This document shows, piece after piece, positions 3,813 to 18,090 of a stretch of DNA of 64,000 nucleotides. Every line of letters begins with the position of its first letter. Positions within the stretch are counted from its first letter, which is position 1. A program made the translations under genes and the position numbers. The stretch is from an uncultured Candidatus Rokubacteria bacterium (lineage in GTDB: Bacteria; Methylomirabilota; Methylomirabilia; Rokubacteriales; CSP1-6). Location of the stretch: positions 64,001 through 128,000 of the forward strand of contig CAWBMV010000034.1 in the NCBI GenBank assembly GCA_963789955.1, given 5' to 3'. Under the pieces are notes generated by a model. That model was not told the DNA's origin, searched no databases, and worked only from the letters and a program-made list of their open reading frames with translations.

Positions 3813-4866
3813 CGATACTCCCCGGTGCCTCGAGAAAGAACGCGGCCGCTTGCCCACTGACCTGTTCCTCGTCTCCTCGGCGTGGCCGTCGGATTCGCTC
3901 GCTCAGGTCGTGCCGCCCTCGTGCGCCCGCGGTGTTCTCCCGGCTCCTGCCATCACGCCGGACCGGGATGACCTGCTCGTGACGTTTCCAGAGTGGCGAC
4001 CCCGGCAGCCCGCTCACCGCCTGGTGCCGTCGCTCAGCGCGCTTGGCACGAGCCCGCTCGGCTTTCGCTTCGAGCTCTCGGCGTTCGCGGCCGGCGCTTG
4101 GTCGCCCTGGATCGCCGGCGCCACGGTGGGGCGAGCGGGATTCGCCGCGGGCACCGCGCGTTCGGCGACCCTCGTGTGCGAGATCGATGAGTTCATCGCG
4201 CACCCGCCGGCCGAGCGCGTCCGGATGGTCCTGCGCGCGAACGCCGACGGGCCGGCCGCCTCGCTATCCCCGTGGTGCGCGTCGTTGTCCTCGTGGAGTC
4301 CCGGAGGCGAAGAGTCGCTCGGCGCCGGCGGCGCCCGCCTGGTCGTTCCGGCGCTCAGCCAGATGGAGGAGGCCGCCACGATCCGACATCGCGTCTGCTC
4401 GCCGACGTGCGTGGCGATGGTGCTCGGGTACTACGGTCGTCGCGTGGCGGTCGCGGACCTCGCCCGCGAGATGTTCCAGCCTGAGCTGGATATTTATGGT
4501 GTGTGGCCGGCGGCGATACGGGCCGCGGGTCGCCTCGGGATCGGTGGCTACCTCCTGCGCTTTCCCGACTGGGGCGCCGCGGCGTGGTGTCTCGAGCGTG
4601 GCATGCCGGTGATCGCGTCGGTTCGCTACGGCCCGGGCGAGCTGAGCGATGCGGCGATCGCGGAAACGACGGGACATCTGCTCGTGCTGACGGGCTATGC
4701 CGGAGACGACGTGTTCGTCAACGACCCTGCCGCGCCCCGGGCCTCGGAGGTCGTGCGCCGCTATCGGCTCGACGAGCTCCGCCGGGTCTGGCTCACGCGC
4801 TCGGGCATCGGCTATGTGCTGTTCGGCGCGACCGCGCCACCGCGGGACGCCGCGCCCGGGCGTTGA
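3769..4866 (+). CDS. Peptidase C39-like (C39_2) family protein; true start possibly TTG near 3850
   Basis: SQM..VCSPTCVAMVL (catalytic Cys), GHLLVLTGY, VFVNDPAA. Confidence 0.8.
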   Translation: MKRGVRGRARLAHAPDTPRCLEKERGRLPTDLFLVSSAWPSDSLAQVVPPSCARGVLPAPAITPDRDDLLVTFPEWRPRQPAHRLVPSLSALGTSPLGFRFELSAFAAGAWSPWIAGATVGRAGFAAGTARSATLVCEIDEFIAHPPAERVRMVLRANADGPAASLSPWCASLSSWSPGGEESLGAGGARLVVPALSQMEEAATIRHRVCSPTCVAMVLGYYGRRVAVADLAREMFQPELDIYGVWPAAIRAAGRLGIGGYLLRFPDWGAAAWCLERGMPVIASVRYGPGELSDAAIAETTGHLLVLTGYAGDDVFVNDPAAPRASEVVRRYRLDELRRVWLTRSGIGYVLFGATAPPRDAAPGR

Positions 4867-4904
4867 GTGGTCCCACGTTCTGGGTGCGATACAATGCGAC
4901 GAGT

Positions 4905-5168
4905 ATGCGCAACAAGCTGACATACGGTGTCTTGCTCGTGGCGCTCGCGACGAGCGCGTGCGGCGCCGACAGCCGCGAGTGGATGAAGCTCGATTCAGCG
5001 TACACGACGGCGGAGTTCCGGCGTGACTTCCAGGAATGCACGGTCAAGGGCAAGCTCGACGACGACTGTATGAAGTCACGCGGCTGGGTCGCCGTCACTC
5101 CGCCCAAGGGCGAGCAGAAGAAGGAAGATCCGCTCTCGATGCCGGCCGGCCGCAGTCCTCGCCGCTAG
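4905..5168 (+). CDS. Small putative lipoprotein, 87 aa
   Basis: MRNKLTYGVLLVALATSAC lipobox; two further Cys (QEC..DCMKSRGW); TACAAT at 4890-4895. Confidence 0.7.
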   Translation: MRNKLTYGVLLVALATSACGADSREWMKLDSAYTTAEFRRDFQECTVKGKLDDDCMKSRGWVAVTPPKGEQKKEDPLSMPAGRSPRR

Positions 5169-5638
5169 ACGGCGCCGCTCTGCTCCTCCATCGGCATGTG
5201 ATCGGCCAGCCGCGAGGCGATGACGCGCACGCGGTCCAGCTCTTCCGAGTCGCCGGCACGTGAGGCGAGCCCTTCGGCGACGCGCATGCACTGCTCCACG
5301 GTCGAGCGATCGCCGAGCATCCCGAATGCCTCCGCTGCGTGCAGCACGCCGTTCAGTGAACGCTGCTGGCGAGCCCGGAAGAACGCGATCCAGTACGTCT
5401 CGCGCGCGCGCGCCGCGGCATCACGCGCGAGCCCGGGGAAGGCGGCGAGACGGAGCGAAGCGCTGGCGACGGTGAGGAGGCCGAGCCACCCGGGGTGGCT
5501 GAGCGCGGCCGAATACGCCTGTCGCCACGCGCGCACCGACTCGCCGGGGTCGCCGCTCAGCAGCGCCTGGTCCATGGCCTGAATGTGGGCTGTCCAGGGG
5601 CCGAGCGTCTCGACCTTGCCGAACATGGGTCGCGCCAT
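5165..5638 (-). CDS. Hypothetical helical protein, paralog of 5736-6308
   Basis: GGAGGT RBS before ATG 5638; shares W..AY.AAL..W.G..VA / AR..Y..A.FRAR..SL.GVL..A..F..LGDR..V.QC.RVA with its neighbour. Confidence 0.8.
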   Translation of the reverse strand: MARPMFGKVETLGPWTAHIQAMDQALLSGDPGESVRAWRQAYSAALSHPGWLGLLTVASASLRLAAFPGLARDAAARARETYWIAFFRARQQRSLNGVLHAAEAFGMLGDRSTVEQCMRVAEGLASRAGDSEELDRVRVIASRLADHMPMEEQSGAV

Positions 5639-5735
5639 CACTGCACCTCCGTCACGCCGTCCGCGTCGCGCGGCGCCTACCGTTTGTAAGAGCTCCATCG
5701 AATCATCCTCTGTGTGAAGTGAAGTGGGCACTGCA

Positions 5736-6308
5736 CTATGGGGTCAGATCCCCGTTTTCGATTCCCGCGGCGCTGGCAGCCCAGCGCTCCGTGAAGGCGC
5801 GGAGGTGCTCCGCGGCGTACGGATCTCTGGACTGGGCGACGACCCTCTGCGCGACGCGAATGCATTGCGCGACGACCTCACGGTCTCCGAGCTCGGCGAA
5901 GCGGTCGGCGGTGATCAGCACACCCGCGAGCGATCCTTCGCTCCGCGCCCGGAACAACGCCGTGAGATAGGCCTGGCGGGCCTTCGCGACCGAGGCTGCC
6001 CGGAATCCCGCCCGGGCCCCCAGGGCTCGATAGGTGTCCGCGACCGCCACCATGCCTTCCCAGTGACGGCTCTTCAGCGCGGCCGCGTAGGCGTCGCGCC
6101 ACAGCAGCTCGGCTCTAGTGAACTCATTTGCAGCCATGGCCTGCTCGACCTTGAGGAGCCGGGCCTGCCAGGCGAGCTGGGCCTCGGTCCCGATGGCGTG
6201 ATCGGCGAGGACATCTTTGACCGTCGCCGCCAACACCATCGGTCCGAGCGTCGAGACGATCGCTGGTAGAAACAAGCAGAGCCAGCGGCTCGACCAGAGG
6301 TCCTTCAT
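5736..6308 (-). CDS. Hypothetical helical protein with hydrophobic N-terminus, paralog of 5165-5638
   Basis: GGAGG RBS before ATG 6308 (MKDLWSS); shared motif with downstream gene. Confidence 0.8.
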   Translation of the reverse strand: MKDLWSSRWLCLFLPAIVSTLGPMVLAATVKDVLADHAIGTEAQLAWQARLLKVEQAMAANEFTRAELLWRDAYAAALKSRHWEGMVAVADTYRALGARAGFRAASVAKARQAYLTALFRARSEGSLAGVLITADRFAELGDREVVAQCIRVAQRVVAQSRDPYAAEHLRAFTERWAASAAGIENGDLTP

Positions 6309-6334: not shown

Positions 6335-6350
6335 CGCAAGGCCGATACCA
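6335..6350 (-). promoter_or_regulatory. sigma54 (-24/-12) promoter
   Basis: Minus strand TGGTATCGGCCTTGCG = GG-N10-GC with TGG and TTGC; divergent from a sigma54 activator. Confidence 0.7.
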
Positions 6351-6461: not shown

Positions 6462-9400
6462 ATGAAGCACCTGGCGGACCTGCTCGGTGAAAGTCCGGGC
6501 ATCCAGGCGATTCGTGATCAGATCGCGAGGCTCCTGACCCGGCAGCAGGATGCGCGCAGGCTGCCGCCGGTGCTCATCGAGGGCGAGACGGGGACCGGCA
6601 AGGGGCTCCTGGCCCGTGCGATTCATCGCGCGGGACCGCGACCCGACGGTCCTTTCGTCGACGTCAACTGCGCCGCAATTCCGGAAACTCTGCTCGAGGC
6701 CGAGATGTTTGGCTTCGAGAAAGGCGCGTTCACCGACGCCCGGCGCTCGAAGCCGGGCCTGCTTCAGACGGCCCATCGGGGGACGATCTTCCTCGACGAG
6801 GTCGGGCTTCTGTCCGAAGGGCTCCAGGCGAAGCTCCTCAAGGTACTCGAGGAGCGGAGCGTGCGCCGGCTCGGCAGCACGCGCGACGAGCCGATCGACG
6901 TCTGGATCCTCACCGCGACGAACGAGAATCTGAAGTCGGCGATCCAGGGGCGCCGCTTCCGGGAGGACCTCTACCACCGTCTCGCCGTGCTGACGCTCTC
7001 GCTGCCGCCGCTCCGCGAGCGCGGCGACGACATCCTCATGCTCGCCGAGCACTATCTCGGTCGAGCCTGCAACGACTACGGCGTGTCGGCGAAGACCCTG
7101 GCCGCCGACGCGCGGGCGGCGCTGCGCGCGTACCCGTGGCCGGGCAACGTCCGCGAGGTCGCCAACCTGATGGAGCGAGTCGCGCTGCTCTCGTCGGATC
7201 CGACCGTGACCGCGGACGCGCTCGGGCTGACGGCGGTCGCGCCGACGAAGGCTGCCGCCGCGGTCACGACACCAGCGGGATCGCCGAGCTCGCTCGACGA
7301 CGCGGTTCGCGACCGGGTGTCCGATGTGCTGAGTCAGACCGGCTGGAACATCTCGCGTACCGCGGCGCTGCTCGGAATCTCGCGAAACACCCTGAGGGCT
7401 CGCATCGACAAGTATGGGCTCCGCGTGGGCGAGGCACCGGCGCCGCCGCCACCAGCGCCGCGCCCCGAGCGGCGGCCGGCCCGCCGCGCTGAGCCGACTC
7501 AGGTCGCTCCCGATGAGGCGGCTGCTCCCGCGGTGGCTGCGCCGCCGCCCGCGCCGGCAGCGCTCGAGTGGGAGCGCCGCCGCGTCACGATGCTGCGCGC
7601 GTCGCTGCTCGCCCCGTCGGCGCCGGAAGCGCTCCTCCAGACCAATCGCGCGCTCGAGCTGTTGCTCGACAAGGTCCGCAGTTTCGGCGGCACGATCGAG
7701 GGTCGCGGACCGACCGGAATCGCCGCCGCGTTCGGCCTCGACCCGACGGAGGACGCGCCGAGCCGCGCGGCGCACGCCGCGATGGCCATCGTCAATGCCG
7801 TCACGCGCGCCCGGCAGGACGCCGGAACGGGTGCCGCCATCAAGGTCGGTGTCCATACGAGTCCGATTCTCGTCGGCCGGGGCACGGGCGTGCCCGAGCT
7901 CGATCTCGAAGGCAAGCAGGCCGCGCTGAGCGTGCTGAACACCTTGATCGGGCGCGGCGACGTCGACAGCGTGATGGTGAGCGAGGCGACGGCGCCGTTT
8001 CTCACGCGCGGATTCGAGTTGCGTGAGCTGGACGGCGAGGAGTACGGGCGCGGGCGCGTGTACACCCTCGTGGGGCGCGGGCGAATGGGCCCCGGTCAGG
8101 CCGGACGCGCCTCCACGTTCGTCGGGCGCAATCGCGAGCTCGAGCTCCTGTCGAGCCGCCTCGAGTCCGCGATGCGCGGCCGCGGGCAGATCGTCGGGAT
8201 CAGCGGCGAGGCGGGGATCGGCAAGTCGCGCTTGATCTTCGAGTTCCGCGAGAGCCTGACGGGCAAGGGGGTGACGTGTCTCGAAGGCCAGTGCCACTCG
8301 CACGGCACCGCGGTGCCCTATCTTCCGATCCTCGACCTGATCCGCGCGGCCTGCGGCATCGAAGAAGGCGACGCGCCCGGGGTCATGGCCGACAAGGCAC
8401 GCTCCACCCTCCTCGAGGCCGGCATGGACCTCCTGGAGACCGCGCCCTATGTTCTGCATCTCCTCGACATCGAACAGGACCCGGAGCGCTTTGCGGCAAT
8501 GACCCCCGACGTGACGAAGGCGCGGATCTTCGACACGCTCCGCCAGCTGACGTTGCGGAAGAGCCGGCAGGCGCCGCTGGTCATCGTGGTCGAGGACCTG
8601 CACTGGATCGACGGCACGTCCGAGGAGTACCTTGCGTCGCTCGCGGAGATTATCCAGGGAGCCCGCGTGCTCATGGTGTGCACGCACCGCGGCGGGTTCC
8701 GACCCTCCTGGATCGAGAAGTCGTATACGACGCAGGTCGCGCTCCAGCCGCTCGCCCCCGAGGAAAGCCTCCACATCGTGAGGTCGGTACTCGGCCCGGA
8801 CGAGCCGGCGGATGCCCTCTACGAGCTGATCGTGGTCAAGGCCGAAGGCAATCCGTTCTTCGTCGAAGAGCTCGCGCGGACCGTCCGCGAGCAGATCGGC
8901 GGCGCGACGCCGATGACGGTGCCCGACACGGTCGAGGAGGTCCTCGGCGGCCGTATCGATCGGCTCGCCCCTGAGGAACGGCGACTGCTCGAGGTCGCGG
9001 CGGTCGTCGGCAAGGACGTGCCGTTCGCGGTGGTCCACGCGGTGGCCGGGCTGACCGAAGACAAGGTCCGACGGATATTCGAGCGTCTCAAGAGCGCCGA
9101 ATTTCTCTACGAGACGAGCCCGGGGCCGGACACCGAGTACACGTTCAAGCACACCCTGACCCACGAGGTCGCGTACGAGCGACTCCTCCCGCAAGCGCGG
9201 CGCGCTCTGCACGCGCGGATCGTCCAGGCGATCGAACGCCTCTATGAGAATCGGCTGGTCGAACAGGTCGACCAGCTCGCCGATCATGCGCTGCGCGGCC
9301 ACGTGTGGGCCAAGGCCGTCGACTATCTGCGCCAGGCAGGGGCGCGCGCGGCGGCCCGCTCGGCGCACCGGGACGCGGTCACGCATCTCGAGCAAGCGCT

Positions 9401-10586
9401 CGTGGCGCTCGGACACTTACCCAAGGACCGCGCATGGACGGAGCAGGCGATCGACATCCGTCTGGATCTCCGGCTGGCGCTGCTCCCGATCGGCGAGCTC
9501 GAGCCGATTCTGGCGCATCTCCGGGAGGCCGAAGCCTTCGCCGACGAGCTGCAGGACCAGCACCGAATCGGCCGAGTGTCGGTCTACATGACCGGCCAGT
9601 ACTATCAGATGGGGCTGCACGAGCGCGCCATCGAGTATGGCAAGCGCACCCAGGCCATCAGCGAGTCCCTGCGCGACTTCAGTCTAGAAGTCGCGACGAA
9701 TGCGTACGTCGGACAGATCCATCTCGGACTCGGCGAGTACCGCTCGGCGACAGCGCTGTTCAGGAAGAACGTCGAAGCCATCGTGGGCGATCTGACGTAC
9801 GAGCGCTTCGGCCTGCCGCAGCTCCCTGCCGTGCATTCGCGGTACTGCCTCGTGCTGTGCTTGGCGGAGATGGGCGAGTTCGCTGAGGGCATCGTGCGCG
9901 GCCAGGAATCCATCCGGATCGCCGAGTCCATCGAGCAGCCGCTGAACCTCACCGCGGCCACCTCCGGACTTGGCAGGCTGTACTACCGCAAGGGCGACCT
10001 CGAGCGCGCCGTCCCCGTTCTCAGGCGGGCATTGGAGCTCAGCCGTACGTGGAATCTCCGGATCTGGTTCCCGCAGGTCGCGACCGCGCTCGGGTCGTGC
10101 TACTCCGCGATGGGACGGCTGACCGATGCGCTGCCCTTGCTGGAGGAAGCGGTCGGGGTTGGTGGCGCGATGCGGCTGTTGAGCGCCCAGGCGCCGGCCC
10201 TGACGGCCCTCGGCGAGGCGCACTTGCTCGCGGGCAAGCTCGCGCAGTCGTCCGAAACGGCTCAGTCCGCGCTGCTCGTGGCGCAGCAGAATGGCCGCCG
10301 CGGCCACGAGGCCTGGGCGCTGCGGCTTCTGGGCGAGCTCGCCCTGTGCCGGCCGGACGCGCCGCTTGCACGGGACCAGTTCACCCGGGCCCTCGCGCTC
10401 ACGACCGCGCTCGACATGCGACCTCTCAGCGCGCACTGCTACTTCGGACTCGGCCGCGCCCTTCGGATGGCGAACGACCACCAAGCCGCCGAACGGCACC
10501 TGGCGACGGCGGTCGATCTATTCCGCGAAATGGACATGGGCTTTTGGCTCGCCCAGGCTTCCACGGAGAAGGACAAGCGAATCTGA
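6462..10586 (+). CDS. sigma54-dependent activator (AAA+ and Fis HTH) fused to a degenerate class III cyclase-like domain, a second P-loop ATPase and TPR repeats
   Basis: GETGTGKG, GAFTDA, FLDEVG, WPGNVRE, NISRTAALLGISRNTLR; ERRRVTML; GEAGIGKS, VEDLHWID; TPR-like C-terminus. Confidence 0.92.
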   Translation: MKHLADLLGESPGIQAIRDQIARLLTRQQDARRLPPVLIEGETGTGKGLLARAIHRAGPRPDGPFVDVNCAAIPETLLEAEMFGFEKGAFTDARRSKPGLLQTAHRGTIFLDEVGLLSEGLQAKLLKVLEERSVRRLGSTRDEPIDVWILTATNENLKSAIQGRRFREDLYHRLAVLTLSLPPLRERGDDILMLAEHYLGRACNDYGVSAKTLAADARAALRAYPWPGNVREVANLMERVALLSSDPTVTADALGLTAVAPTKAAAAVTTPAGSPSSLDDAVRDRVSDVLSQTGWNISRTAALLGISRNTLRARIDKYGLRVGEAPAPPPPAPRPERRPARRAEPTQVAPDEAAAPAVAAPPPAPAALEWERRRVTMLRASLLAPSAPEALLQTNRALELLLDKVRSFGGTIEGRGPTGIAAAFGLDPTEDAPSRAAHAAMAIVNAVTRARQDAGTGAAIKVGVHTSPILVGRGTGVPELDLEGKQAALSVLNTLIGRGDVDSVMVSEATAPFLTRGFELRELDGEEYGRGRVYTLVGRGRMGPGQAGRASTFVGRNRELELLSSRLESAMRGRGQIVGISGEAGIGKSRLIFEFRESLTGKGVTCLEGQCHSHGTAVPYLPILDLIRAACGIEEGDAPGVMADKARSTLLEAGMDLLETAPYVLHLLDIEQDPERFAAMTPDVTKARIFDTLRQLTLRKSRQAPLVIVVEDLHWIDGTSEEYLASLAEIIQGARVLMVCTHRGGFRPSWIEKSYTTQVALQPLAPEESLHIVRSVLGPDEPADALYELIVVKAEGNPFFVEELARTVREQIGGATPMTVPDTVEEVLGGRIDRLAPEERRLLEVAAVVGKDVPFAVVHAVAGLTEDKVRRIFERLKSAEFLYETSPGPDTEYTFKHTLTHEVAYERLLPQARRALHARIVQAIERLYENRLVEQVDQLADHALRGHVWAKAVDYLRQAGARAAARSAHRDAVTHLEQALVALGHLPKDRAWTEQAIDIRLDLRLALLPIGELEPILAHLREAEAFADELQDQHRIGRVSVYMTGQYYQMGLHERAIEYGKRTQAISESLRDFSLEVATNAYVGQIHLGLGEYRSATALFRKNVEAIVGDLTYERFGLPQLPAVHSRYCLVLCLAEMGEFAEGIVRGQESIRIAESIEQPLNLTAATSGLGRLYYRKGDLERAVPVLRRALELSRTWNLRIWFPQVATALGSCYSAMGRLTDALPLLEEAVGVGGAMRLLSAQAPALTALGEAHLLAGKLAQSSETAQSALLVAQQNGRRGHEAWALRLLGELALCRPDAPLARDQFTRALALTTALDMRPLSAHCYFGLGRALRMANDHQAAERHLATAVDLFREMDMGFWLAQASTEKDKRI

Positions 10587-10615
10587 GCGCGTCTCGCGCG
10601 CGCTCGAGCGTCCCG

Positions 10616-10765
10616 CTACTTCGAGGGCTTGCGCACCTTCCCGCCGTATCGGCGCACGACCTTCTCCATCGCTCGCCGTAGCCTCTCGAGACCGGGCTTG
10701 CTCATCGGCCGCTTCACGTTGAAGGACACTCGGACTAGCTTGCCTCTCGGTTGAAGTCTCGGCAT
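10616..10765 (-). CDS. Basic microprotein C, 49 aa (below ORF-track cutoff)
   Basis: MPRLQPRGKLVRVSFNVKRPMSKPGLERLRRAMEKVVRRYGGKVRKPSK*; AGGAGGA RBS 7 nt upstream; paralog of 11017-11172. Confidence 0.85.
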   Translation of the reverse strand: MPRLQPRGKLVRVSFNVKRPMSKPGLERLRRAMEKVVRRYGGKVRKPSK

Positions 10766-10767
10766 CG

Positions 10768-10956
10768 TCACGTCCTCCTGGTCTTTCGGAGGGTGGGTCG
10801 CCGGCCGGCGACAGGTTCGACGACGAAGTCCTCGAGCTCGAAGCCGTGACGCCGTGCGAGCCAGACGAGCTCGAGCCGCAGCGCCTCGGCCTCGCGCGCG
10901 TCGAGCTCGCCCTGAATCTGGTATCGCTCACGACGCTCGGTGGATTTCGTCGTCAT
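10768..10956 (-). CDS. Microprotein B, 62 aa
   Basis: MTTKSTERRERYQIQGELDAREAEALRLELVWLARRHGFELEDFVVEPV..; GAGGT RBS; stop lies 2 nt before the next ATG. Confidence 0.75.
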   Translation of the reverse strand: MTTKSTERRERYQIQGELDAREAEALRLELVWLARRHGFELEDFVVEPVAGRRPTLRKTRRT

Positions 10957-10970
10957 CGCACTACCTCGCC

Positions 10971-11006
10971 GCGGCCGCCTCCCGACGGAGCATGGGAGAC
11001 GGCCGC
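10971..11006 (-). other. GC-rich stem-loop between microprotein genes A and B
   Basis: GCGGCCGCCTCCC..GGGAGACGGCCGC imperfect inverted repeat, no U-tract. Confidence 0.55.
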
Positions 11007-11016
11007 GCACTGGGCT

Positions 11017-11172
11017 CTAACGGGTTTTCTTCTTCTTCTTGATCTTGCCACCGTGCTTCTTCACGAACTTCTCGACTTCCGCCTGCAGCTTGGCCTTTGC
11101 TTTGGCGGTCTTCGGGCGCCTGACCGAAAACGACACCCGGACCTTCTGCCCCGACGGCTTGCTGGTAGGCAT
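11017..11172 (-). CDS. Lys-rich microprotein A, 51 aa (below ORF-track cutoff)
   Basis: MPTSKPSGQKVRVSFSVRRPKTAKAKAKLQAEVEKFVKKHGGKIKKKKKTR*; GAAGGAG RBS. Confidence 0.85.
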   Translation of the reverse strand: MPTSKPSGQKVRVSFSVRRPKTAKAKAKLQAEVEKFVKKHGGKIKKKKKTR

Positions 11173-11220
11173 TCAGCGATCTCCTTCGCATAACACATAA
11201 AATGTTCACGGCGTCCGCGG

Positions 11221-12285
11221 CTACGGCCGCGCGTCCTCGATTCCGTCGCCGAGATCGTCGGCATGAAAGATCCCCGCCAAGGTGTCGAGGTTACGGACCA
11301 TATAATAGTCCTCCGTCGCCTCATATTCGCCCCGGACATTCACGGGCCGGCCGAGCGCCAGCCGCACGTAGCTCGATGCCATGTTGTGGCGACCGACGAG
11401 GTCGTACAGGTTGGTGCTCATGCTGAAACGGCCCGCGTTGATCTCCGTCACGCACGGAACGCCGCGTGCGTCCTCCCGGACGTCGAAGCAGTAGATCCCG
11501 CACGCGCGCCGGTCCACGGCGCGCACGGCCGCCTCGCACACCGCCGCCACCCGAGGCTCGTTGACCGTCTTCGCGAGCGCCGCGACCGACGAGGTCCCCG
11601 GCTCACCGTCGAACGGGACGAGGCGCTCGAACGTTTTCGTGAGAACGAGAGTTCCCTCGTGCCACAGGCTCTGGCAGCTGAAATCGCGCCCGGGCAGATA
11701 CTCCGACAAGGTGAACTCGGCCGCGCGCACTCCGCGCATGCGTTCCCAGTACGCGATCCAGCTCCGCGCCTGCGCCGGCGTCTCCACCAGGAGGGCTCCG
11801 AGGCCCCCCTGCCCAGATCGGATCCGGCACCATATCTGTCGCGCGGGCGCCAGACGCCGGAAGAGTCGGGGAATATCGGCGAGCCGCCTCACTGCGTGCG
11901 TGACGGGCGTGGGCACACCGCGGGCCCGCAGGACCATCGCCAGCGCATACTTGTCCTGACACAGCTCGATGACCGACGTCCGCGGCAGGAACACGCGGCG
12001 TCCGAAGGCGAGTCGCGCGCGCCCGATCTGCTTGACGTCGGCGTCCGACGTCGGGATCAGCAGGTCGATCTTTTCGCGTCGAACGAGCGCCCGTAGCGCT
12101 CGAGCACGATCGCGATGCCGGCTCGGCGGGAGCAGATGCTTCGTGTCGGCGGCGGAGGCGCGCAGGGCGAAGCGATCGTCGTGGCAGCCGACGATCCTCG
12201 CCGCCGGCTCGCCGGCTCGCAAACTCCGGATCAGGTTCTCGGCCGGACCGGTTCCCGCGCCGGTCACGAGCAGGCGCGCGGTCAC
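11221..12285 (-). CDS. ATP-grasp domain protein (CarB-like / PylC-like single ATP-grasp)
   Basis: LLVTGAGTG pre-grasp domain, IDLLIPTSD, CQDKY, SEYLPGRDF, VTEINAGRF. Confidence 0.85.
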   Translation of the reverse strand: MTARLLVTGAGTGPAENLIRSLRAGEPAARIVGCHDDRFALRASAADTKHLLPPSRHRDRARALRALVRREKIDLLIPTSDADVKQIGRARLAFGRRVFLPRTSVIELCQDKYALAMVLRARGVPTPVTHAVRRLADIPRLFRRLAPARQIWCRIRSGQGGLGALLVETPAQARSWIAYWERMRGVRAAEFTLSEYLPGRDFSCQSLWHEGTLVLTKTFERLVPFDGEPGTSSVAALAKTVNEPRVAAVCEAAVRAVDRRACGIYCFDVREDARGVPCVTEINAGRFSMSTNLYDLVGRHNMASSYVRLALGRPVNVRGEYEATEDYYMVRNLDTLAGIFHADDLGDGIEDARP

Positions 12286-13664
12286 GAGCGTCCTGGCCGG
12301 GGCGAGATTCCGCGCCGGCGGAACGCGGCGAGGATGATCGCCCCATAGCGGCCGCCGAGGACGCGATCGGCGGCGATCATGTTCGCGACGACGCTAGAGT
12401 AAGGGAGACGCTCGTTGCCGCGCGGGCGGTCTCGGCCGGGAAAGTCGTCGACGGAAGTCCGCGCCCACGTCTTCGCGAGGAGACGACCGAAATCGTCGCG
12501 CGCGTCGAGCAGGGCCAGCCGGAATTCCTCCGGGGCCTTCGCGTAGTGGACGGCGAAGCTCCGGCGGAGCTGCCGGAATCGGCGATGGGTCACGGCCGGC
12601 GAGGCTCGATCGATGGCGATCGCGATGGCGCTCTTCGATTCCCTGGCCAATCCGGCCGGAATCGCGCCGCGCCGCACCAGGTACTGCTCGTAGATCTCGA
12701 CGAGGACGTCGAACGCGCCGCCGGTGAAGAGCTTGGAGAACGCGTGCGTGTCGTATTTCGCCTCGGCCGTTGCGACCGATGGCGACCAGATCGTGTCGGA
12801 GTTGAACGCGCTCCGGATCTGGGCACCGCGGCTCGCCTCTCCGAACCGCGAGAGCATGTTTCGTGAGAAGAGACGTCCGCGCGTGTTCGCGAGGAGGCGT
12901 CCGACGACGTGGTCGAAGTGCAGGCACGCGATCAACGCCACGAGGTCGGCGGCGCCTTCCTCGTGGGCGCGATACTCCAGCGTCTTCTTCGAGGCGGTCG
13001 GGTTACCGATGATGGATTTGAGGATCAGGTGTCCCGTCTCGTGCGCGACGACGTCGAAGTTCTCGCACAACCACGCCGGAGCGCTGCGCCGCCGGCCGCG
13101 GCGTCTCGGAAGGGAATAGCCGAACTCGAGAAAGCCCTCACCCGACCACGCGTTGTCGGTCTCGGCGCGCGGAATGAGCTCGAGGTGTCGGTGCTCGCGA
13201 TCTCGGAAGAACCAGACGATCCGGTGGCCGAGGTAGTGCTCCCAGATCTCGAGCACGCACCGGACGGTCGCGAACGCGTTGGCGGCCGAGAACGCCCGCG
13301 TGCCCACTCTGACGTGATCGAAGTGCCCGCGATGGGCCTTGACCGGCGGGTGACGCGGGTCTCCGGGCGGATAGGGCGGACGCCAGCGCGGATCGCCGAC
13401 GGCTGAATCCGAGTAGGGCAGCTTCCATTTGTACGGGCGGCGCCCATTGGTGTCGATCACGCGGATTCTCGAGTCCGACGGTCCTGGACCGATGGTACCC
13501 GGGCGCGAGGCGACGTGGACGGTCAGCGGCGCGGCGAAGCCCTCGACGCTGCTTGCCTGCTGATAGATTCGAAAACGGGTGCCCCGCGGATCGAAGCGGA
13601 ATCGAGCCGAGGGCTCCCCGTGTGGGCGTACCGAGCCTCGTCGAGACGATGATCGTCGTGCCAT
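12282..13664 (-). CDS. Gluzincin-type zinc metallopeptidase (M4/M36-like), no signal peptide
   Basis: DNAWSG, DVVAHETGH (HExxH), downstream HEEGAAD third ligand; 4-nt overlap with ATP-grasp gene. Confidence 0.78.
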   Translation of the reverse strand: MARRSSSRRGSVRPHGEPSARFRFDPRGTRFRIYQQASSVEGFAAPLTVHVASRPGTIGPGPSDSRIRVIDTNGRRPYKWKLPYSDSAVGDPRWRPPYPPGDPRHPPVKAHRGHFDHVRVGTRAFSAANAFATVRCVLEIWEHYLGHRIVWFFRDREHRHLELIPRAETDNAWSGEGFLEFGYSLPRRRGRRRSAPAWLCENFDVVAHETGHLILKSIIGNPTASKKTLEYRAHEEGAADLVALIACLHFDHVVGRLLANTRGRLFSRNMLSRFGEASRGAQIRSAFNSDTIWSPSVATAEAKYDTHAFSKLFTGGAFDVLVEIYEQYLVRRGAIPAGLARESKSAIAIAIDRASPAVTHRRFRQLRRSFAVHYAKAPEEFRLALLDARDDFGRLLAKTWARTSVDDFPGRDRPRGNERLPYSSVVANMIAADRVLGGRYGAIILAAFRRRGISPRPGRS

Positions 13665-13676
13665 GGCATCAATGCG

Positions 13677-13692
13677 GCGAACGTGGTGCCAA
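13677..13692 (-). promoter_or_regulatory. sigma54 (-24/-12) promoter candidate
   Basis: Minus strand TTGGCACCACGTTCGC = TGGCAC-N5-TCGC; predicted +1 near 13665, next to ATG 13664. Confidence 0.6.
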
Positions 13693-13729
13693 GCACGAAT
13701 CTAAGACAAAACGCCGCCCGCGTGCTACC

Positions 13730-14782
13730 TCATCGTGCGCGCAGCTGCAGGGCGTGACCGTCGAGATCGTGCAGCGCGATCGCCCGACGGAAACTGGGAG
13801 CCGCGTCGAAGATCGATATGATGGCCGGTCGGTCGGACATTTCGGAGGCCGCGGCCAGCTTGATCGCGGCTGCGTCGGCGTCGGTTATGACCAGGAGCGT
13901 GTGCCACCGGACGAGATCCTCGCCCATCGTGTCCCGCGGGTACGGCCGCCCATCGCGCGGCGCCAGATATTCGAGAAGCTCGAGCGCCGGGCCCTCGGCG
14001 GCGCGGAGCGTCGTGATCCTGAGCCGGGCGCCCGGCACGCTGCTCAGGCGTTCCTGCTCGGGCCCGGAGCTCTCGCTTCCGCCGGCAATCCGGAGGCCGA
14101 GCGTGTCGCGGTAGAGCTTCAGGCTCTTCTCGGTATCGCTCACGACGATCGCCGTGTGATCGATCCCGAGGAAGACGCGATCGCTCGGCCGCTGCCAGCG
14201 GGCGTCGCCCTTCCCGGCCGGAAACTGGAGAATCTCGAGCGCGTGGCCGTCCGGGTCCTTGAAGGAGAACGCGCGGATGCCGCCGGTGTTCGGATTCCAG
14301 TCCGGGAGCCGCTGGGGCTCCGGCGAGGTTTGTTCGACGCGATGGCGCCGAAGCCAGAGGTATGCCTGGTCCATGTCGTTGACGACGATCGCGATGTGCT
14401 GGAAGGACCGATCGTTGCTCTGCGCGTCGTCGGGAACAGGGCGCCCGTTGCGGCCGAGATACTCGACGAGCTCGATTCGCTCGGCGCCGAGCCGCATGGT
14501 GACGACTCGAACCCGGGCGCCGGTCACCCCGAGCAGCCGGTCGATCGACGGCCCGGACGTCTGGACGTCAGATACCGTGTCGAAGAAGAGTACGGTCGAA
14601 TAGAACGCGACCGATCGGTCCATGTCCGCAACCGGGATCGCCACGCCACCCACGGCGCTCACGGGGCTCGTGGGCGCGGGGTTGACCGTCGATCCCGCGC
14701 CCGACGGCGACATGTGAAGCGCCAGCGCCACGCCGAGCAAGGTGACCAGGAGTGCCGGCGCCAGCCGCAGTCGTGCGCTCAT
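13730..14782 (-). CDS. Exported two-domain VOC/glyoxalase family protein
   Basis: Signal peptide; VADMDRSVAFY, FQHIAIVV, FKDPDGHALE, IDHTAIVV, DLDGHAL. Confidence 0.88.
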   Translation of the reverse strand: MSARLRLAPALLVTLLGVALALHMSPSGAGSTVNPAPTSPVSAVGGVAIPVADMDRSVAFYSTVLFFDTVSDVQTSGPSIDRLLGVTGARVRVVTMRLGAERIELVEYLGRNGRPVPDDAQSNDRSFQHIAIVVNDMDQAYLWLRRHRVEQTSPEPQRLPDWNPNTGGIRAFSFKDPDGHALEILQFPAGKGDARWQRPSDRVFLGIDHTAIVVSDTEKSLKLYRDTLGLRIAGGSESSGPEQERLSSVPGARLRITTLRAAEGPALELLEYLAPRDGRPYPRDTMGEDLVRWHTLLVITDADAAAIKLAAASEMSDRPAIISIFDAAPSFRRAIALHDLDGHALQLRAR

Positions 14783-15686: not shown

Positions 15687-15962
15687 GTGAAGAAGTCCAA
15701 TCTGATCATCGCCTCGGCGGTGGCGGCGGCCTTCGCCCTGCCGCTCATCTCGGATGCCCAGGGCGGTCCCGCGCCGAAGCCGACGTTCGAATCCGAGAAG
15801 TGCTACGGCATCGCGAAAGCGGGCAAGAACGACTGCCAGACCGCCAACTCGTCCTGCGCCGGCACCTCGAAGCGCGACAGCCAGGGTGACGCGTGGATCT
15901 ACATGCCGGCGGGTGCCTGCGGCAAGGTCGTCGGCGGCAGCCTCATGCCCAAGCGGGCCTGA
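15687..15962 (+). CDS. bufA1: Bufferin-type RiPP precursor (DUF2282/BufA1)
   Basis: Signal peptide, then EKCYGIAKAGKNDC..SCAG..WIYMPAGAC four-Cys signature. Confidence 0.92.
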   Translation: MKKSNLIIASAVAAAFALPLISDAQGGPAPKPTFESEKCYGIAKAGKNDCQTANSSCAGTSKRDSQGDAWIYMPAGACGKVVGGSLMPKRA

Positions 15963-15994
15963 TCGATCTCGATGAACGGCGGGCGACAGGTGCC

Positions 15995-16870
15995 ATGATC
16001 GCGCGCGACGATCGCTTGGCAACGATTCCGGCTCGTGCCGGGATCGGCCTGCGGGCGCCGCACGTCGCCGAGGTCATGGCGACCCGGCCTGCCATCGCGT
16101 TCCTCGAAGTGCACACGGAGAACTATCTGGGCGGCGGACCGGCCGTTGCCGCGCTCGAGCGGCTGCGGCACGATTATCCGGTCTCGCTGCACGGAGTCGG
16201 CCTCTCGCTCGCAGGCGCCGATCCGCTGGACGATCGTCATCTGCTCCGCGTGAAAGGGCTGGTCGACCGGATCCAGCCCGCGCTCGTCTCGGAGCATCTC
16301 GCGTGGAGCGTCGGCGGCGGCGCCTATCTCAATCATCTGCTGCCGCTGCCGTACGACGCCGTTCGCCTCGAGGCGACGAGCCGGCGCATCGAGCGGATCC
16401 AGGAGACGCTCGGCCGCAGGATCCTCGTCGAGAACCCGGCACGCTATCTGCGCTTCCGCGGGTCACCCATTCCCGAGCCCGGGTTCCTCCTCGAGCTCAG
16501 TCGCCGGACCGGATGCGGCCTTTTGCTGGACATCAACAACGTCTACGTCAGCGCCCGCAACTTCGACGAGGATCCCGGCGAATACCTCGATGCCATGAAG
16601 GCCGGCGCGATCGGCGAGATTCATCTGGCCGGCCACGCCACGAACGACGCTGACGGCCGCGCGATCCTGATCGACGACCACGGCTCGCGCGTCGCCGAGG
16701 CGGTGTGGGGCCTCTATCGCGCCGCGCTCACGCAGCTCGGTCCGGTACCGACCTTGGTCGAGTGGGATACGAATCTGCCGGAGCTCGCCGTGCTGCTCGC
16801 CGAGGCGGAGCAGGCGGAGCGATCCTTGCGGCCAACCCAGAGTGGCGAAGACCGTGTCGTCGCCGCGTGA
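15995..16870 (+). CDS. bufB: MNIO (DUF692) family maturase
   Basis: GIGLRAPH, FLEVHTENY, LHGVGLSL, SEHLAW, LLLDINNVYVS, EIHLAGH, IDDHGS, EWD. Confidence 0.95.
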   Translation: MIARDDRLATIPARAGIGLRAPHVAEVMATRPAIAFLEVHTENYLGGGPAVAALERLRHDYPVSLHGVGLSLAGADPLDDRHLLRVKGLVDRIQPALVSEHLAWSVGGGAYLNHLLPLPYDAVRLEATSRRIERIQETLGRRILVENPARYLRFRGSPIPEPGFLLELSRRTGCGLLLDINNVYVSARNFDEDPGEYLDAMKAGAIGEIHLAGHATNDADGRAILIDDHGSRVAEAVWGLYRAALTQLGPVPTLVEWDTNLPELAVLLAEAEQAERSLRPTQSGEDRVVAA

Positions 16871-17642
16871 GCTCGAGCGTGACTTCGCGGCCGCATTGCT
16901 CGGCGGCCCCGAGGATCCGGTCGTCGCCGAGATCCAGGGCGACGGGCTCGATCCGGCGGCGCGACTCGCGATCTATCGCCACCACGTCTCGGCGAGCCTG
17001 ACCGAGGCGCTCGAGGCGACGTACCCGGTCGTCGTCCGGCTCGTCGACCGCCGCTTCTTCGCGTACGCGGCCGACCAGTTCATCCGCCGCCACCCGCCGG
17101 CGGGGCCGTGCCTCTTCGAGTACGGAGAGGCGCTCGCCGATTTTCTGGCGACGTTCCCGGCATCGCGGCACCTGGCCTATCTCCCCGACGTCGCCCGGCT
17201 CGAGTGGGCGCTCAATCGCGCGCTCCACGCCGAAGACGCCGTCGCGCTCGACCCGAGATGGTTGGCCGCGCTCCCGCCGGACGAGGTCGGCGGGGTGCGA
17301 CTGCGGCTCCATCCGTCTGTGTCGCTTCTGGAGTCGCCCTGGCCGATCGACCGAATCTGGCACGCGAATCAGCCGGACGCCGATCCGGACGCGACGGTGA
17401 GCCTCGACCAGGGCGGGGCGCGTCTCGAGGTCTATCGTCTCGAGGACGGCGTGGTGTTCCGGACGATCGCGGCGGATGCGTACGCCTTCCGGATCGCGCT
17501 GGCGTCCGATCTCGATCTGCAGAGCGCGGTAGGTGCGGCGCGGCGCGCCGACCCGAGCTTCAACCTGACCGATGCGCTGCGTGAGCTGCTGGACGACGGG
17601 CTCATCGTCGACGCGGTTTCGCCGACCAAGCGTCCATGCTGA
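16842..17642 (+). CDS. bufC: DUF2063/HvfC-like MNIO partner protein
   Basis: RLAIYR..LEATYPVV, YLPDVARLEWA, SPWPIDRIW; position after DUF692. Confidence 0.9.
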   Translation: MAKTVSSPRELERDFAAALLGGPEDPVVAEIQGDGLDPAARLAIYRHHVSASLTEALEATYPVVVRLVDRRFFAYAADQFIRRHPPAGPCLFEYGEALADFLATFPASRHLAYLPDVARLEWALNRALHAEDAVALDPRWLAALPPDEVGGVRLRLHPSVSLLESPWPIDRIWHANQPDADPDATVSLDQGGARLEVYRLEDGVVFRTIAADAYAFRIALASDLDLQSAVGAARRADPSFNLTDALRELLDDGLIVDAVSPTKRPC

Positions 17643-18090
17643 GCGCCACACGGGGACGGCGTCGTATCGCCGCGCTGATCGAGCTCCTCGGCCGCTTTCC
17701 GATCGCGATCGTTCAGTGTATGTTTCGTCTGGCGATCGCGGCGTCTTCCTGAGAGCCGGCCTGAACAAGATCGCCAGCTGGGAGCTGACGGTGCAGCTCT
17801 TCGCCGACGAGTACAAGGTGCCGGTCCTGGCGCCCGAGATTGCGGCTCGCATGGCGGCGACGTTCGAGATCGGCTGCTCGCTCCTCCTCATCGCCGGCCT
17901 GGCGACGCGGCTGGCGACGCTGCCGCTCCTCGGCATGATCATGACGATCCAGCTCTTCGTCTACCCGAGCGCCTACGCCGAGCATCTCACCTGGGCGTCG
18001 ATCCTGATCTTCCTGCTCACACAGGGAGCGGGCCCGTGGTCGCTCGATCGGCTGGTCGGGCTCGAGTCTGAAGAGACCGGGAGGGAATGA
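17636..18090 (+). CDS. bufD: DoxX family membrane protein (frameshifted near 17700-17740)
   Basis: FLRAGLNKI.SW..TVQLF.DEY.VP, GLATRLATLPLL, GAGPWSLD. Confidence 0.85.

Follow-up and report, generated by a model that had tools for sequence, protein, structure and literature searches.

Among ATP-grasp enzymes, PylC acylates the side chain of lysine, and in the RimK/RimB and LysX/LysW systems an enzyme of this superfamily acts on a small protein with a peptidase as its partner. A related layout is seen in graspetide clusters: in the set gathered with MdnB and MdnC queries by Makarova et al. (2022; PMC8939145), branches 7 and 8 are linked to peptidases of several unrelated families and are given without predicted precursors. 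On the side of sensing, STAND NTPases of the SWACOS clade are named in PMC7159879, and in the Staphylococcus aureus agr system (PMC8768832) agrBDC is linked, exchanged as a block and unlinked to the output gene. The locus described here combines known kinds of parts in an arrangement that, on comparative evidence, appears to be new. It lies in a 64,000-nt stretch of DNA, hereafter the window, from an uncultured Candidatus Rokubacteria bacterium (GCA_963789955.1, contig CAWBMV010000034.1, positions 64,001 to 128,000 of the forward strand), and comprises a cassette—a stand-alone ATP-grasp ligase, two families of microproteins and an optional peptidase—placed tail to tail with a gene for a STAND NTPase ending in TPR repeats. 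A literature search with thin coverage of subscription papers found no description of the cassette; the clade may be treated in the amidoligase study of Iyer et al. 2009, and related loci could be listed in the supplementary tables of PMC8939145.

The cassette consists of five tightly packed minus-strand open reading frames (ORFs), as a first-pass annotation of the sequence had described: a predicted thermolysin-like zinc peptidase (12282..13664; 460 aa from its ATG), the putative amide ligase (11221..12285; 354 aa, GTG start), which shares the reported 4-nt overlap (GTGA) with the peptidase, and the microproteins A (11017..11172; 51 aa), B (10768..10956; 62 aa) and C (10616..10765; 49 aa). 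The words AGGAG, GAGGT and AGGAGG precede A, B and C, respectively, in agreement with the ribosome-binding site claimed for each. The three microprotein genes proposed in that annotation are all real, but they represent two families only, for C is by its sequence a paralog of A (43% identity over 49 aa, E 6e-8 genome-wide); the protein collection contains A, B and C in clusters of 2, 29 and 18 members. The peptidase start had to be moved from 13692, where the annotated region ended, to the ATG at 13664. The conserved unit also extends beyond these five genes: the convergent plus-strand STAND-TPR gene (6462..10586; 1374 aa), the candidate sensor and effector, was missed.

A scan of species-level genomes gave 190 confirmed relatives, the best 80 of which, several of them close kin, are the loci analyzed below (cited where needed by L numbers). 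Their hosts are Rokubacteria and cultured Bradyrhizobium, along with records assigned to Burkholderiales and Gammaproteobacteria; a few isolated records labeled with other phyla fall inside Rokubacteria branches and are not counted as extra phyla. A or B adjoins the ligase in all 76 loci with at least 600 nt of downstream flank (an A-type ORF in 73, B in 68), and a convergent STAND-TPR gene is found within 3.5 kb in 68 of the 72 loci with at least 1.5 kb downstream. Given 15 STAND-like ORFs in the 6.8 Mb of the window's genome, we estimate the chance of such adjacency at about 1%. Rokubacteria, cultured Bradyrhizobium and the Burkholderiales records all keep the tail-to-tail order, although their STAND lineages differ: on a STAND tree (FastTree, 3 rows skipped) the cassette neighbors do not form one clade, with 5 label changes of which 3 are forced by starred branches, and the STAND type switches on several branches of the ligase tree. 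By these trees, the link between cassette and STAND gene survives changes of STAND lineage. The conserved core is the ligase, A, B and the convergent cyclase-STAND-TPR gene, the last being the most constant large partner, with no transporter or kinase in this core. In a set of 61 genomes, ligase matches occur in 26 places at 46–100% identity, besides distant matches at no more than 51 bits; all 24 strong B matches are at ligase loci, and the two of these 26 ligase loci without B both end at contig edges. Thus, the earlier expectation that the microproteins travel with the ligase holds.

The STAND gene of the window is a mosaic whose 3' end was exchanged along with the cassette. Compared with L060, a close relative, its product shows 89–95% identity up to residue 900 and 42–55% beyond, the ligases being 57% identical; compared with L046, it shows 54–72% before and 51–74% after, with the ligase at 71% and A at 60%. 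In DNA comparisons with L029, taken per 150 nt, identity is 84–96% over 6462-9161, 57–68% over 9162-10511 and 67–69% in the ligase and peptidase, and stands at 87–90% from 13737. This drop from 9162 to about 13737 marks the replacement in place of a block of about 4.5 kb holding the TPR-coding end, C, B, A, the ligase and the peptidase (9160..13735, edges approximate). In the protein, the switch falls at residue 915 (permutation p 0.0005). Among 29 pairs with an N-part identity of at least 0.79, the 23 without the window keep TPR identities of 0.69–0.92, compared with 0.44–0.49 in the six pairs with the window, so that faster TPR drift does not account for the drop. Five of 30 full-length sigma-54-type loci have discordant partners for the N-part and the TPR region, with switches at residues 839–915, and in all five the ligase follows the TPR partner; similarly, the similarity of A tracks that of the TPR (partial r 0.61) and not that of the N-part (0.06). 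The likeness to agr (PMC8768832) is one of logic only, in that a processing enzyme, a peptide and a part of the receptor are exchanged as a block; on sequence, the candidate peptide, enzyme and sensor part here seem to be inherited in the same manner, though linkage alone could bring this about. There is no homology between the two systems, the receptor here is a cytoplasmic STAND-TPR protein with the breakpoint inside its gene between NTPase and TPR, and the exporter and histidine kinase that belong to agr have no counterpart in the conserved core, which accordingly shows neither an exported peptide nor a membrane kinase by its predicted products.

The ligase represents an uncharacterized clade with a PRK12767/PylC-like N-terminal domain. 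Its best NCBIfam model is PRK12767.1-1 (75.9 bits against a cut-off of 218), PRK12767 models are the best match for 31 of 31 ligase members, Pfam yields PylC-like_N (E 0.006), and the best solved relative of the ligase profile is 2pn1 (E 3e-7), with LysX and RimK chains also matching. The closest sequence family is hence that of PylC and the PRK12767 "carbamoyl phosphate synthase-like" enzymes (PDB 2pn1), with which the N-terminal domain and ATP-grasp core are shared; unlike the ligase, which scores far below their cut-off, those homologs occur in sugar-pathway clusters without microproteins. By curated cut-offs it would not be assigned to RimK (17.5 bits against 143.4; best E among the members 9e-7) or LysX (19.3 bits against 275.6), so that the likeness to RimK/RimB and LysX/LysW lies in the combination of ATP-grasp enzyme, small protein and peptidase partner, and B differs in that its conserved Glu residues are internal and not C-terminal. 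A check for pheganomycin-type ligases found no PGM1-like family (which we take to be defined by its C-terminal domain) among the three Pfam matches of the window ligase at E≤1, a comparison with families and not with PGM1 itself. D111-K112, E195, D268, G285 and R286 are invariant in 31 of 31 ligases and E281 and N283 are kept in at least 90%, the conserved elements reading DK, EYLPG, D268 and E-x-N. We take these to be the ATP- and metal-binding catalytic residues, and Arg154 presumably replaces the usual second ATP-grasp lysine. The sequence thus places the ligase in the ATP-grasp superfamily, and as these residues are kept in 31 members it is probably active.

The nearest named homologs of the ligase are from Rokubacteria (Methylomirabilota). 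No ortholog was found on plasmids at E 1e-20 or on viral contigs, where 14 distant homologs reach 24–35% identity; neither these 14 nor the best distant match, L159, have a microprotein, peptidase or STAND match beside them. Sugar-pathway genes or a methyltransferase adjoin distant ligases at three loci scanned, L159 is in a polysaccharide cluster, and outgroup ligases sit with epimerase, glycosyltransferase and methyltransferase genes. Ligase homologs in sugar clusters without the peptides had been named in the first-pass annotation as what would speak against its reading; they do exist at 24–35% identity, but the orthologous clade (at least 45% identity) keeps the microproteins. At L023:3811-6812 (-), a radical-SAM-like gene (by motif) and a 546-aa unknown gene lie upstream of the ligase on the other strand.

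Microprotein A, the candidate substrate, is fast-evolving and Lys-rich, with a mean of 17.8% Lys against 3.6% in the proteins of the genome, and it prefers Lys over Arg (median K/(K+R) 0.61 vs 0.43 in 22 small basic ORFs). Its Asp and Glu content is 6.7%, GG occurs in 11 of 52 aligned members, and 51 of the 52 are without a hydrophobic N-terminus. Its ribosome-binding site is mostly strong, two or more copies occur in the window and in L106, L115 and L117, and the Bradyrhizobium proteins are annotated as "hypothetical". At L117:6554-6935 (the L044 region), the ligase that diverges most (45%) has three 41-aa A-like paralogs upstream, one of them in the opposite orientation; there B overlaps the ligase end and a STAND neighbor was not found. 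In L110, A and B are on the strand opposite the ligase, about 700–1500 nt upstream, and converge on a TPR-coding fragment, suggesting a rearrangement that left both microproteins at the sensor end.

Microprotein B, in which an LD-x4-E-x-L-x-L-E-x-R-R-L-A helix is kept, is a candidate adaptor or carrier of the ligase. Its codon-position identities of 0.62/0.69/0.46 over 65 loci indicate a conserved coding sequence. The B profile matches 473 clusters at E≤0.001, and all of the 150 matches listed are stand-alone proteins of 42–114 aa (family median 61 aa), with the first Glu in 149 and the second in 145 of them; Asp and Glu are kept, and no conserved Ser, Thr or Lys is present. The predicted model of B is a single helix (20–37) flanked by extended segments, and its profile weakly matches A (probability 67%, E 5e-5); the profile match and the model point to a strand-helix-strand pattern common to both. 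Little else is recovered by comparison: the fold search with the B model gave a best Z of 3.5 with nothing significant, A and B profile searches against solved structures gave nothing meaningful, and an Atlas search with B returned only unnamed clusters, all below 0.9. Complex prediction of ligase, A and B did not discriminate, with a score for B as partner of 0.35 against 0.38 when the ligase was replaced. In the clade that includes Bradyrhizobium, the start codon of B is a TTG lying within A in the +1 frame; this holds for 20 of 22 loci (a 23rd locus was not parsed), GGAG precedes it in 18 of 22, and the A codon at this point is TTT, ATT or CTT in 22 of 22 (e.g., L078:8124-8475); as an overlapping gene with a TTG start, B may be missed by annotation pipelines. 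Two other accounts of B were rejected. It is not a shadow of an opposite-strand gene, since in the window it does not overlap the STAND gene, and in 47 of 65 loci stops interrupt the antisense frame with which it would share its third codon position. Nor is a programmed A-B frameshift fusion the rule: among 65 loci, B is offset by +1 in 28, by +2 in 25 and by 0 in 9 (3 could not be determined), and the +1 clade has a start codon for B. B as a STAS fragment is unsupported, the match to SpoIIAA (E 0.09) covering 21 positions only. In-frame A-B fusions are seen in L077 (after the ligase) and in protein P0333, and each may be an indel artifact in a low-complexity stretch.

Sequence searches of Pfam, NCBIfam and the PDB gave no match to the peptidase. 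Its AlphaFold model (predicted template-modeling score 0.83) has M36 and M4 proteases as best Foldseek matches (E 9e-5 to 1e-3), with 9–12% identity to solved members and template-modeling scores by target of 0.55–0.65 among the top eight, and its first Atlas match is an M4-like cluster (score 0.98). H208-E209-x-x-H212, E236 and D240 are invariant in 15 of 15 aligned orthologs, and the model thus places HExxH and the downstream Glu on a thermolysin (M4/M36) fold. The best 11-residue N-terminal hydropathy, a proxy for secretion and not a signal-peptide predictor, is -0.01 in the window and -0.01 to 1.61 across 15 members, against 2.19 for a hydrophobic neighbor; the peptidase was rightly described as a signal-less HExxH..E enzyme, and it does not appear to be secreted in the way of M4/M36 proteases, which have a signal peptide and propeptide. 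The first-pass annotation erred in treating it as a core member. The M4-like form is present in 28 and any peptidase in 40 of the 71 ligase loci with at least 1.5 kb of upstream flank; the others are S8 in 5 loci (on three separate branches of the ligase tree), a protein of the beta-lactamase family (S12) in 2, with Pfam matches for 6 of these 7, and HExxH proteins in 6, assigned by motif or clustering. No scored class occurs in the 23-member ligase clade with Bradyrhizobium, three members of which have short upstream flanks. The peptidase is therefore optional, with unrelated families gained and lost. At L112:6809-7780, L119:8139-9293 and L115:8619-9509, the gene between ligase and STAND gene encodes an HExxH metallopeptidase whose N-terminus resembles a signal peptide, so processing may be extracellular in some variants. 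Members of the M4-like family are also found in varied neighborhoods where neither modifying system is present (L200, L203, L210, L213, L220, L231, L232, L236, L237).

A sister system makes use of the same peptidase family. At L156:529-9425, L157:6721-14490 and L158:6904-14367, a peptidase with 41–42% identity stands without this ligase, in the order STAND, YcaO, TfuA, peptidase and repeat-tailed protein; the STAND gene is of cyclase or sigma-54 type and the small partner is a protein of 176–199 aa ending in tandem short repeats. Further instances are among 80 metagenome loci (within L162-L241), which were fetched with a query led by the sister-type peptidase: YcaO or TfuA is present in 26 of 40 with at least 3 kb upstream, a STAND or cyclase gene in 18 of 24 with at least 6 kb upstream, and the ligase, A and B in none of the 80, many of which have neither system. 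No paper describing the sister system was found. Common to both systems are a STAND-TPR gene, a modifying enzyme that depends on ATP and a small protein as candidate substrate; they differ in that the sister uses thioamide-forming enzymes rather than an ATP-grasp ligase, is mostly co-oriented rather than convergent, and has the repeat-tailed protein in place of microproteins. The strongest reason to think that a peptide is the target of the ligase is that two unrelated chemistries share both this peptidase family and a STAND partner. In this respect the earlier proposal of a peptide-modification system gains support, with the amendment that the peptidase is not part of its core.

The window STAND protein joins, by Pfam, a sigma-54 activator, a helix-turn-helix, a degenerate cyclase-like domain, a STAND NTPase (AAA_16) and TPR; Guanylate_cyc is weak in it (E 0.005), against E 5e-24 in L078. 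Its cyclase(-like) domain, STAND NTPase and C-terminal TPR give it, by sequence, a SWACOS-like architecture, as we take that clade to be defined. An ATP-grasp or YcaO partner goes unmentioned in the main text of PMC7159879 (0 occurrences). Of 69 STAND neighbors, 30 have the sigma-54 activator motif and are all without the cyclase GDG motif, 26 of cyclase type keep GDG, and 13 are partial or other; the predicted output is thus of two kinds, a sigma-54 activator whose cyclase is dead and a cyclase that looks intact. Divergent from the STAND gene of the window is an uncharacterized 190-aa protein (5736..6308, minus strand; N-terminal hydropathy 2.19), the candidate output gene, with a sigma-54 (-24/-12)-like site 42 nt upstream (6336..6350, minus strand). 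It is followed by a paralog of the same cluster (5165..5638, minus strand; 157 aa from ATG, 188 aa from GTG 5731), and the two stand with a small conserved gene behind the site (4793-6308). The 190-aa family adjoins the STAND gene in 17 of 26 loci and has no Pfam match in the members scanned or in the 157-aa paralog; by sequence look, a member also adjoins the STAND gene at the YcaO locus L156. A site with at most 3 mismatches to the sigma-54 consensus is found at the divergent gene in 15 of 17 loci, most of them close kin, and at nearly the same offset in 12; the corresponding figure for random windows is 148 of 920. Sites of this quality precede the cassette in 6 of 24 loci, at scattered positions. 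The activator domain would therefore most likely drive the divergent genes and not the cassette. Sigma-54 control of the cassette was rejected as its good site (13691-13677, minus strand, 2 mismatches) is not conserved in relatives. The start predicted from that site falls at the ATG of the peptidase; as no clear ribosome-binding site precedes this ATG, the mRNA may be leaderless.

Taken together, these observations suggest, at roughly even odds (about 0.5), that the ligase modifies A with B as adaptor, and that the matched TPR end reads the product and passes the signal to sigma-54 transcription or cyclic-nucleotide synthesis. The ligase would activate a carboxylate with ATP and form an amide on A, most likely at a Lys side chain or the N-terminus, with A as the abundant substrate, as we infer; B, which is conserved, single-copy and often weakly initiated, would serve through its invariant Glu helix as an adaptor of the ligase or an acyl carrier. 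The peptidase, where present, would release, trim or destroy the modified product. Binding of the product by the matched TPR would let the STAND domain oligomerize and switch on its output, which would be either the synthesis of cyclic nucleotides or the sigma-54-dependent expression of the divergent pair of 190-aa-family genes. A broader view can be offered tentatively, as one that falls somewhat short of even odds: this would be an NLR-like STAND-TPR receptor with its own ligand factory, a modified Lys-rich microprotein being read strain-specifically and ligand genes and TPR end being swapped as one specificity block, and together with the YcaO-TfuA sister it would form a class of interchangeable peptide-modifying chemistries feeding STAND receptors.

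Several observations weigh against this proposal. Met1 is the sole invariant residue in the 52 aligned A members, leaving no conserved acceptor, and some members are acidic or have 2 Lys. The STAND neighbor is absent in 4 of 72 loci and a scored peptidase in 31 of 71, and 6 of the 13 "other peptidase" calls are based on the HExxH motif or clustering without a Pfam match. The nearest outgroup ligases are among sugar-pathway genes. The A and B profiles were built from the same loci that they scored (a reversed-sequence control gave 0 of 6393). As to the exchange, the five discordant sequences amount to at most 3–4 events, the window and L060 being one, pairs of kin are not independent, and the correlation of A with the TPR is 0.16 once ligase identity is controlled; since the TPR end adjoins the cassette, hitch-hiking through physical linkage could by itself explain the co-exchange, and the crossovers at 839–915 may merely mark the nearest conserved stretch. 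Further, what is observed is co-occurrence, co-exchange, folds and motifs; the substrate, bond, binding and direction of the signal are proposals.

The same co-exchange data would also suit a guard model, in which A or an A-B dimer binds the TPR and holds the STAND protein off. The ligase would then write a reversible tag and the peptidase erase it, and the switch would be freed when stress or infection causes A to be lost or cleaved. The strand-helix-strand pattern of A and B resembles a folded unit rather than a leader and core, and a cytoplasmic, dispensable peptidase fits such a role; the repeat-tailed, precursor-like protein of the sister system fits a released ligand better, none of the five cassette proteins is matched by a defense model of PADLOC (2023 library), in which the STAND protein has generic sigma-54 AAA and TPR matches only, and the plasmid and viral searches gave no ortholog. 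We consider this model unlikely. Less likely again is that the ligase forms an amide on a small molecule (an amino sugar, amino acid or polyamine) sensed by the TPR, with A and B as accessory subunits. The PRK12767/PylC-like affinity of the enzyme, the epimerase, glycosyltransferase and methyltransferase genes around the outgroup and the lack of a conserved reactive residue in A would all be in keeping with that, but no recurrent sugar or small-molecule enzyme family is found among the listed neighbor clusters across the clade, and a peptide substrate accords better with two further features: unrelated peptidases have been recruited repeatedly, and A diverges fast and is duplicated.

A still lower likelihood may be given to linkage only, under which the cassette is a self-contained modified-peptide system, the STAND gene is a regulator or a favored insertion neighbor, and its TPR end is carried along by recombination. 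Adjacent DNA does move jointly, STAND genes are multi-copy in these genomes, and the low partial correlation of A and TPR given the ligase and the loci without a STAND gene point the same way; against it stand the tail-to-tail order retained across distant hosts and STAND lineages, the second modifying chemistry likewise tied to STAND genes, and the sigma-54 site, which points away from the cassette, so that simple transcriptional control does not explain the link. Highly improbable, and already disfavored, is a graspetide cluster with atypical precursors. Its layout of ligase, protease and short ORFs is shared, and PMC8939145, in the part available, reports graspetide-clade ligases adjoining unrelated peptidases, as is the case for the stand-alone ATP-grasp genes of branches 7 and 8 beside short ORFs; it names no STAND partner there. 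However, no graspetide-ligase or peptide-maturase model is among the 22 NCBIfam families matched by the 31 ligases, placing the enzyme, by family models and not by a tree with MdnB/C, outside the RimK-related MdnB/MdnC clade and with PRK12767/PylC, and two constant microprotein families are found here. Neither A, with its low Asp and Glu content and infrequent GG, nor B, without conserved Ser, Thr or Lys, appears to have the leader motif or GG site and the Ser/Thr/Lys and Asp/Glu core of a graspetide precursor. The first-pass view of an undescribed ligase-centered system distinct from graspetides is thus borne out.

Around the locus, a two-domain glyoxalase/VOC gene (13730-14782, minus strand) in the same orientation lies beyond the exchanged block and, being found in 6 of 26 loci, is probably a bystander. 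Farther out (15687-18090, plus strand), a short Cys-rich, secreted-looking ORF is followed by three more genes, presumably a DUF692/DUF2063/DoxX cluster. Metatranscriptome contigs of 4 runs cover the region, one of 557 nt corresponding to 10691-11247 with 1 difference, though DNA within those libraries could be their source.

Cyclase-STAND-TPR genes are multi-copy in these soil bacteria, and to our knowledge no activator of them has been described; this locus offers candidates for the ligand, for the enzyme that makes it and for the sensor end that goes with it. It would also provide a first, proposed role for an unannotated clade of ATP-grasp enzymes and for two unannotated microprotein families, and may reveal a new amide chemistry on folded microproteins. 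The occurrence of the system in cultured Bradyrhizobium makes the question of the ligand testable.

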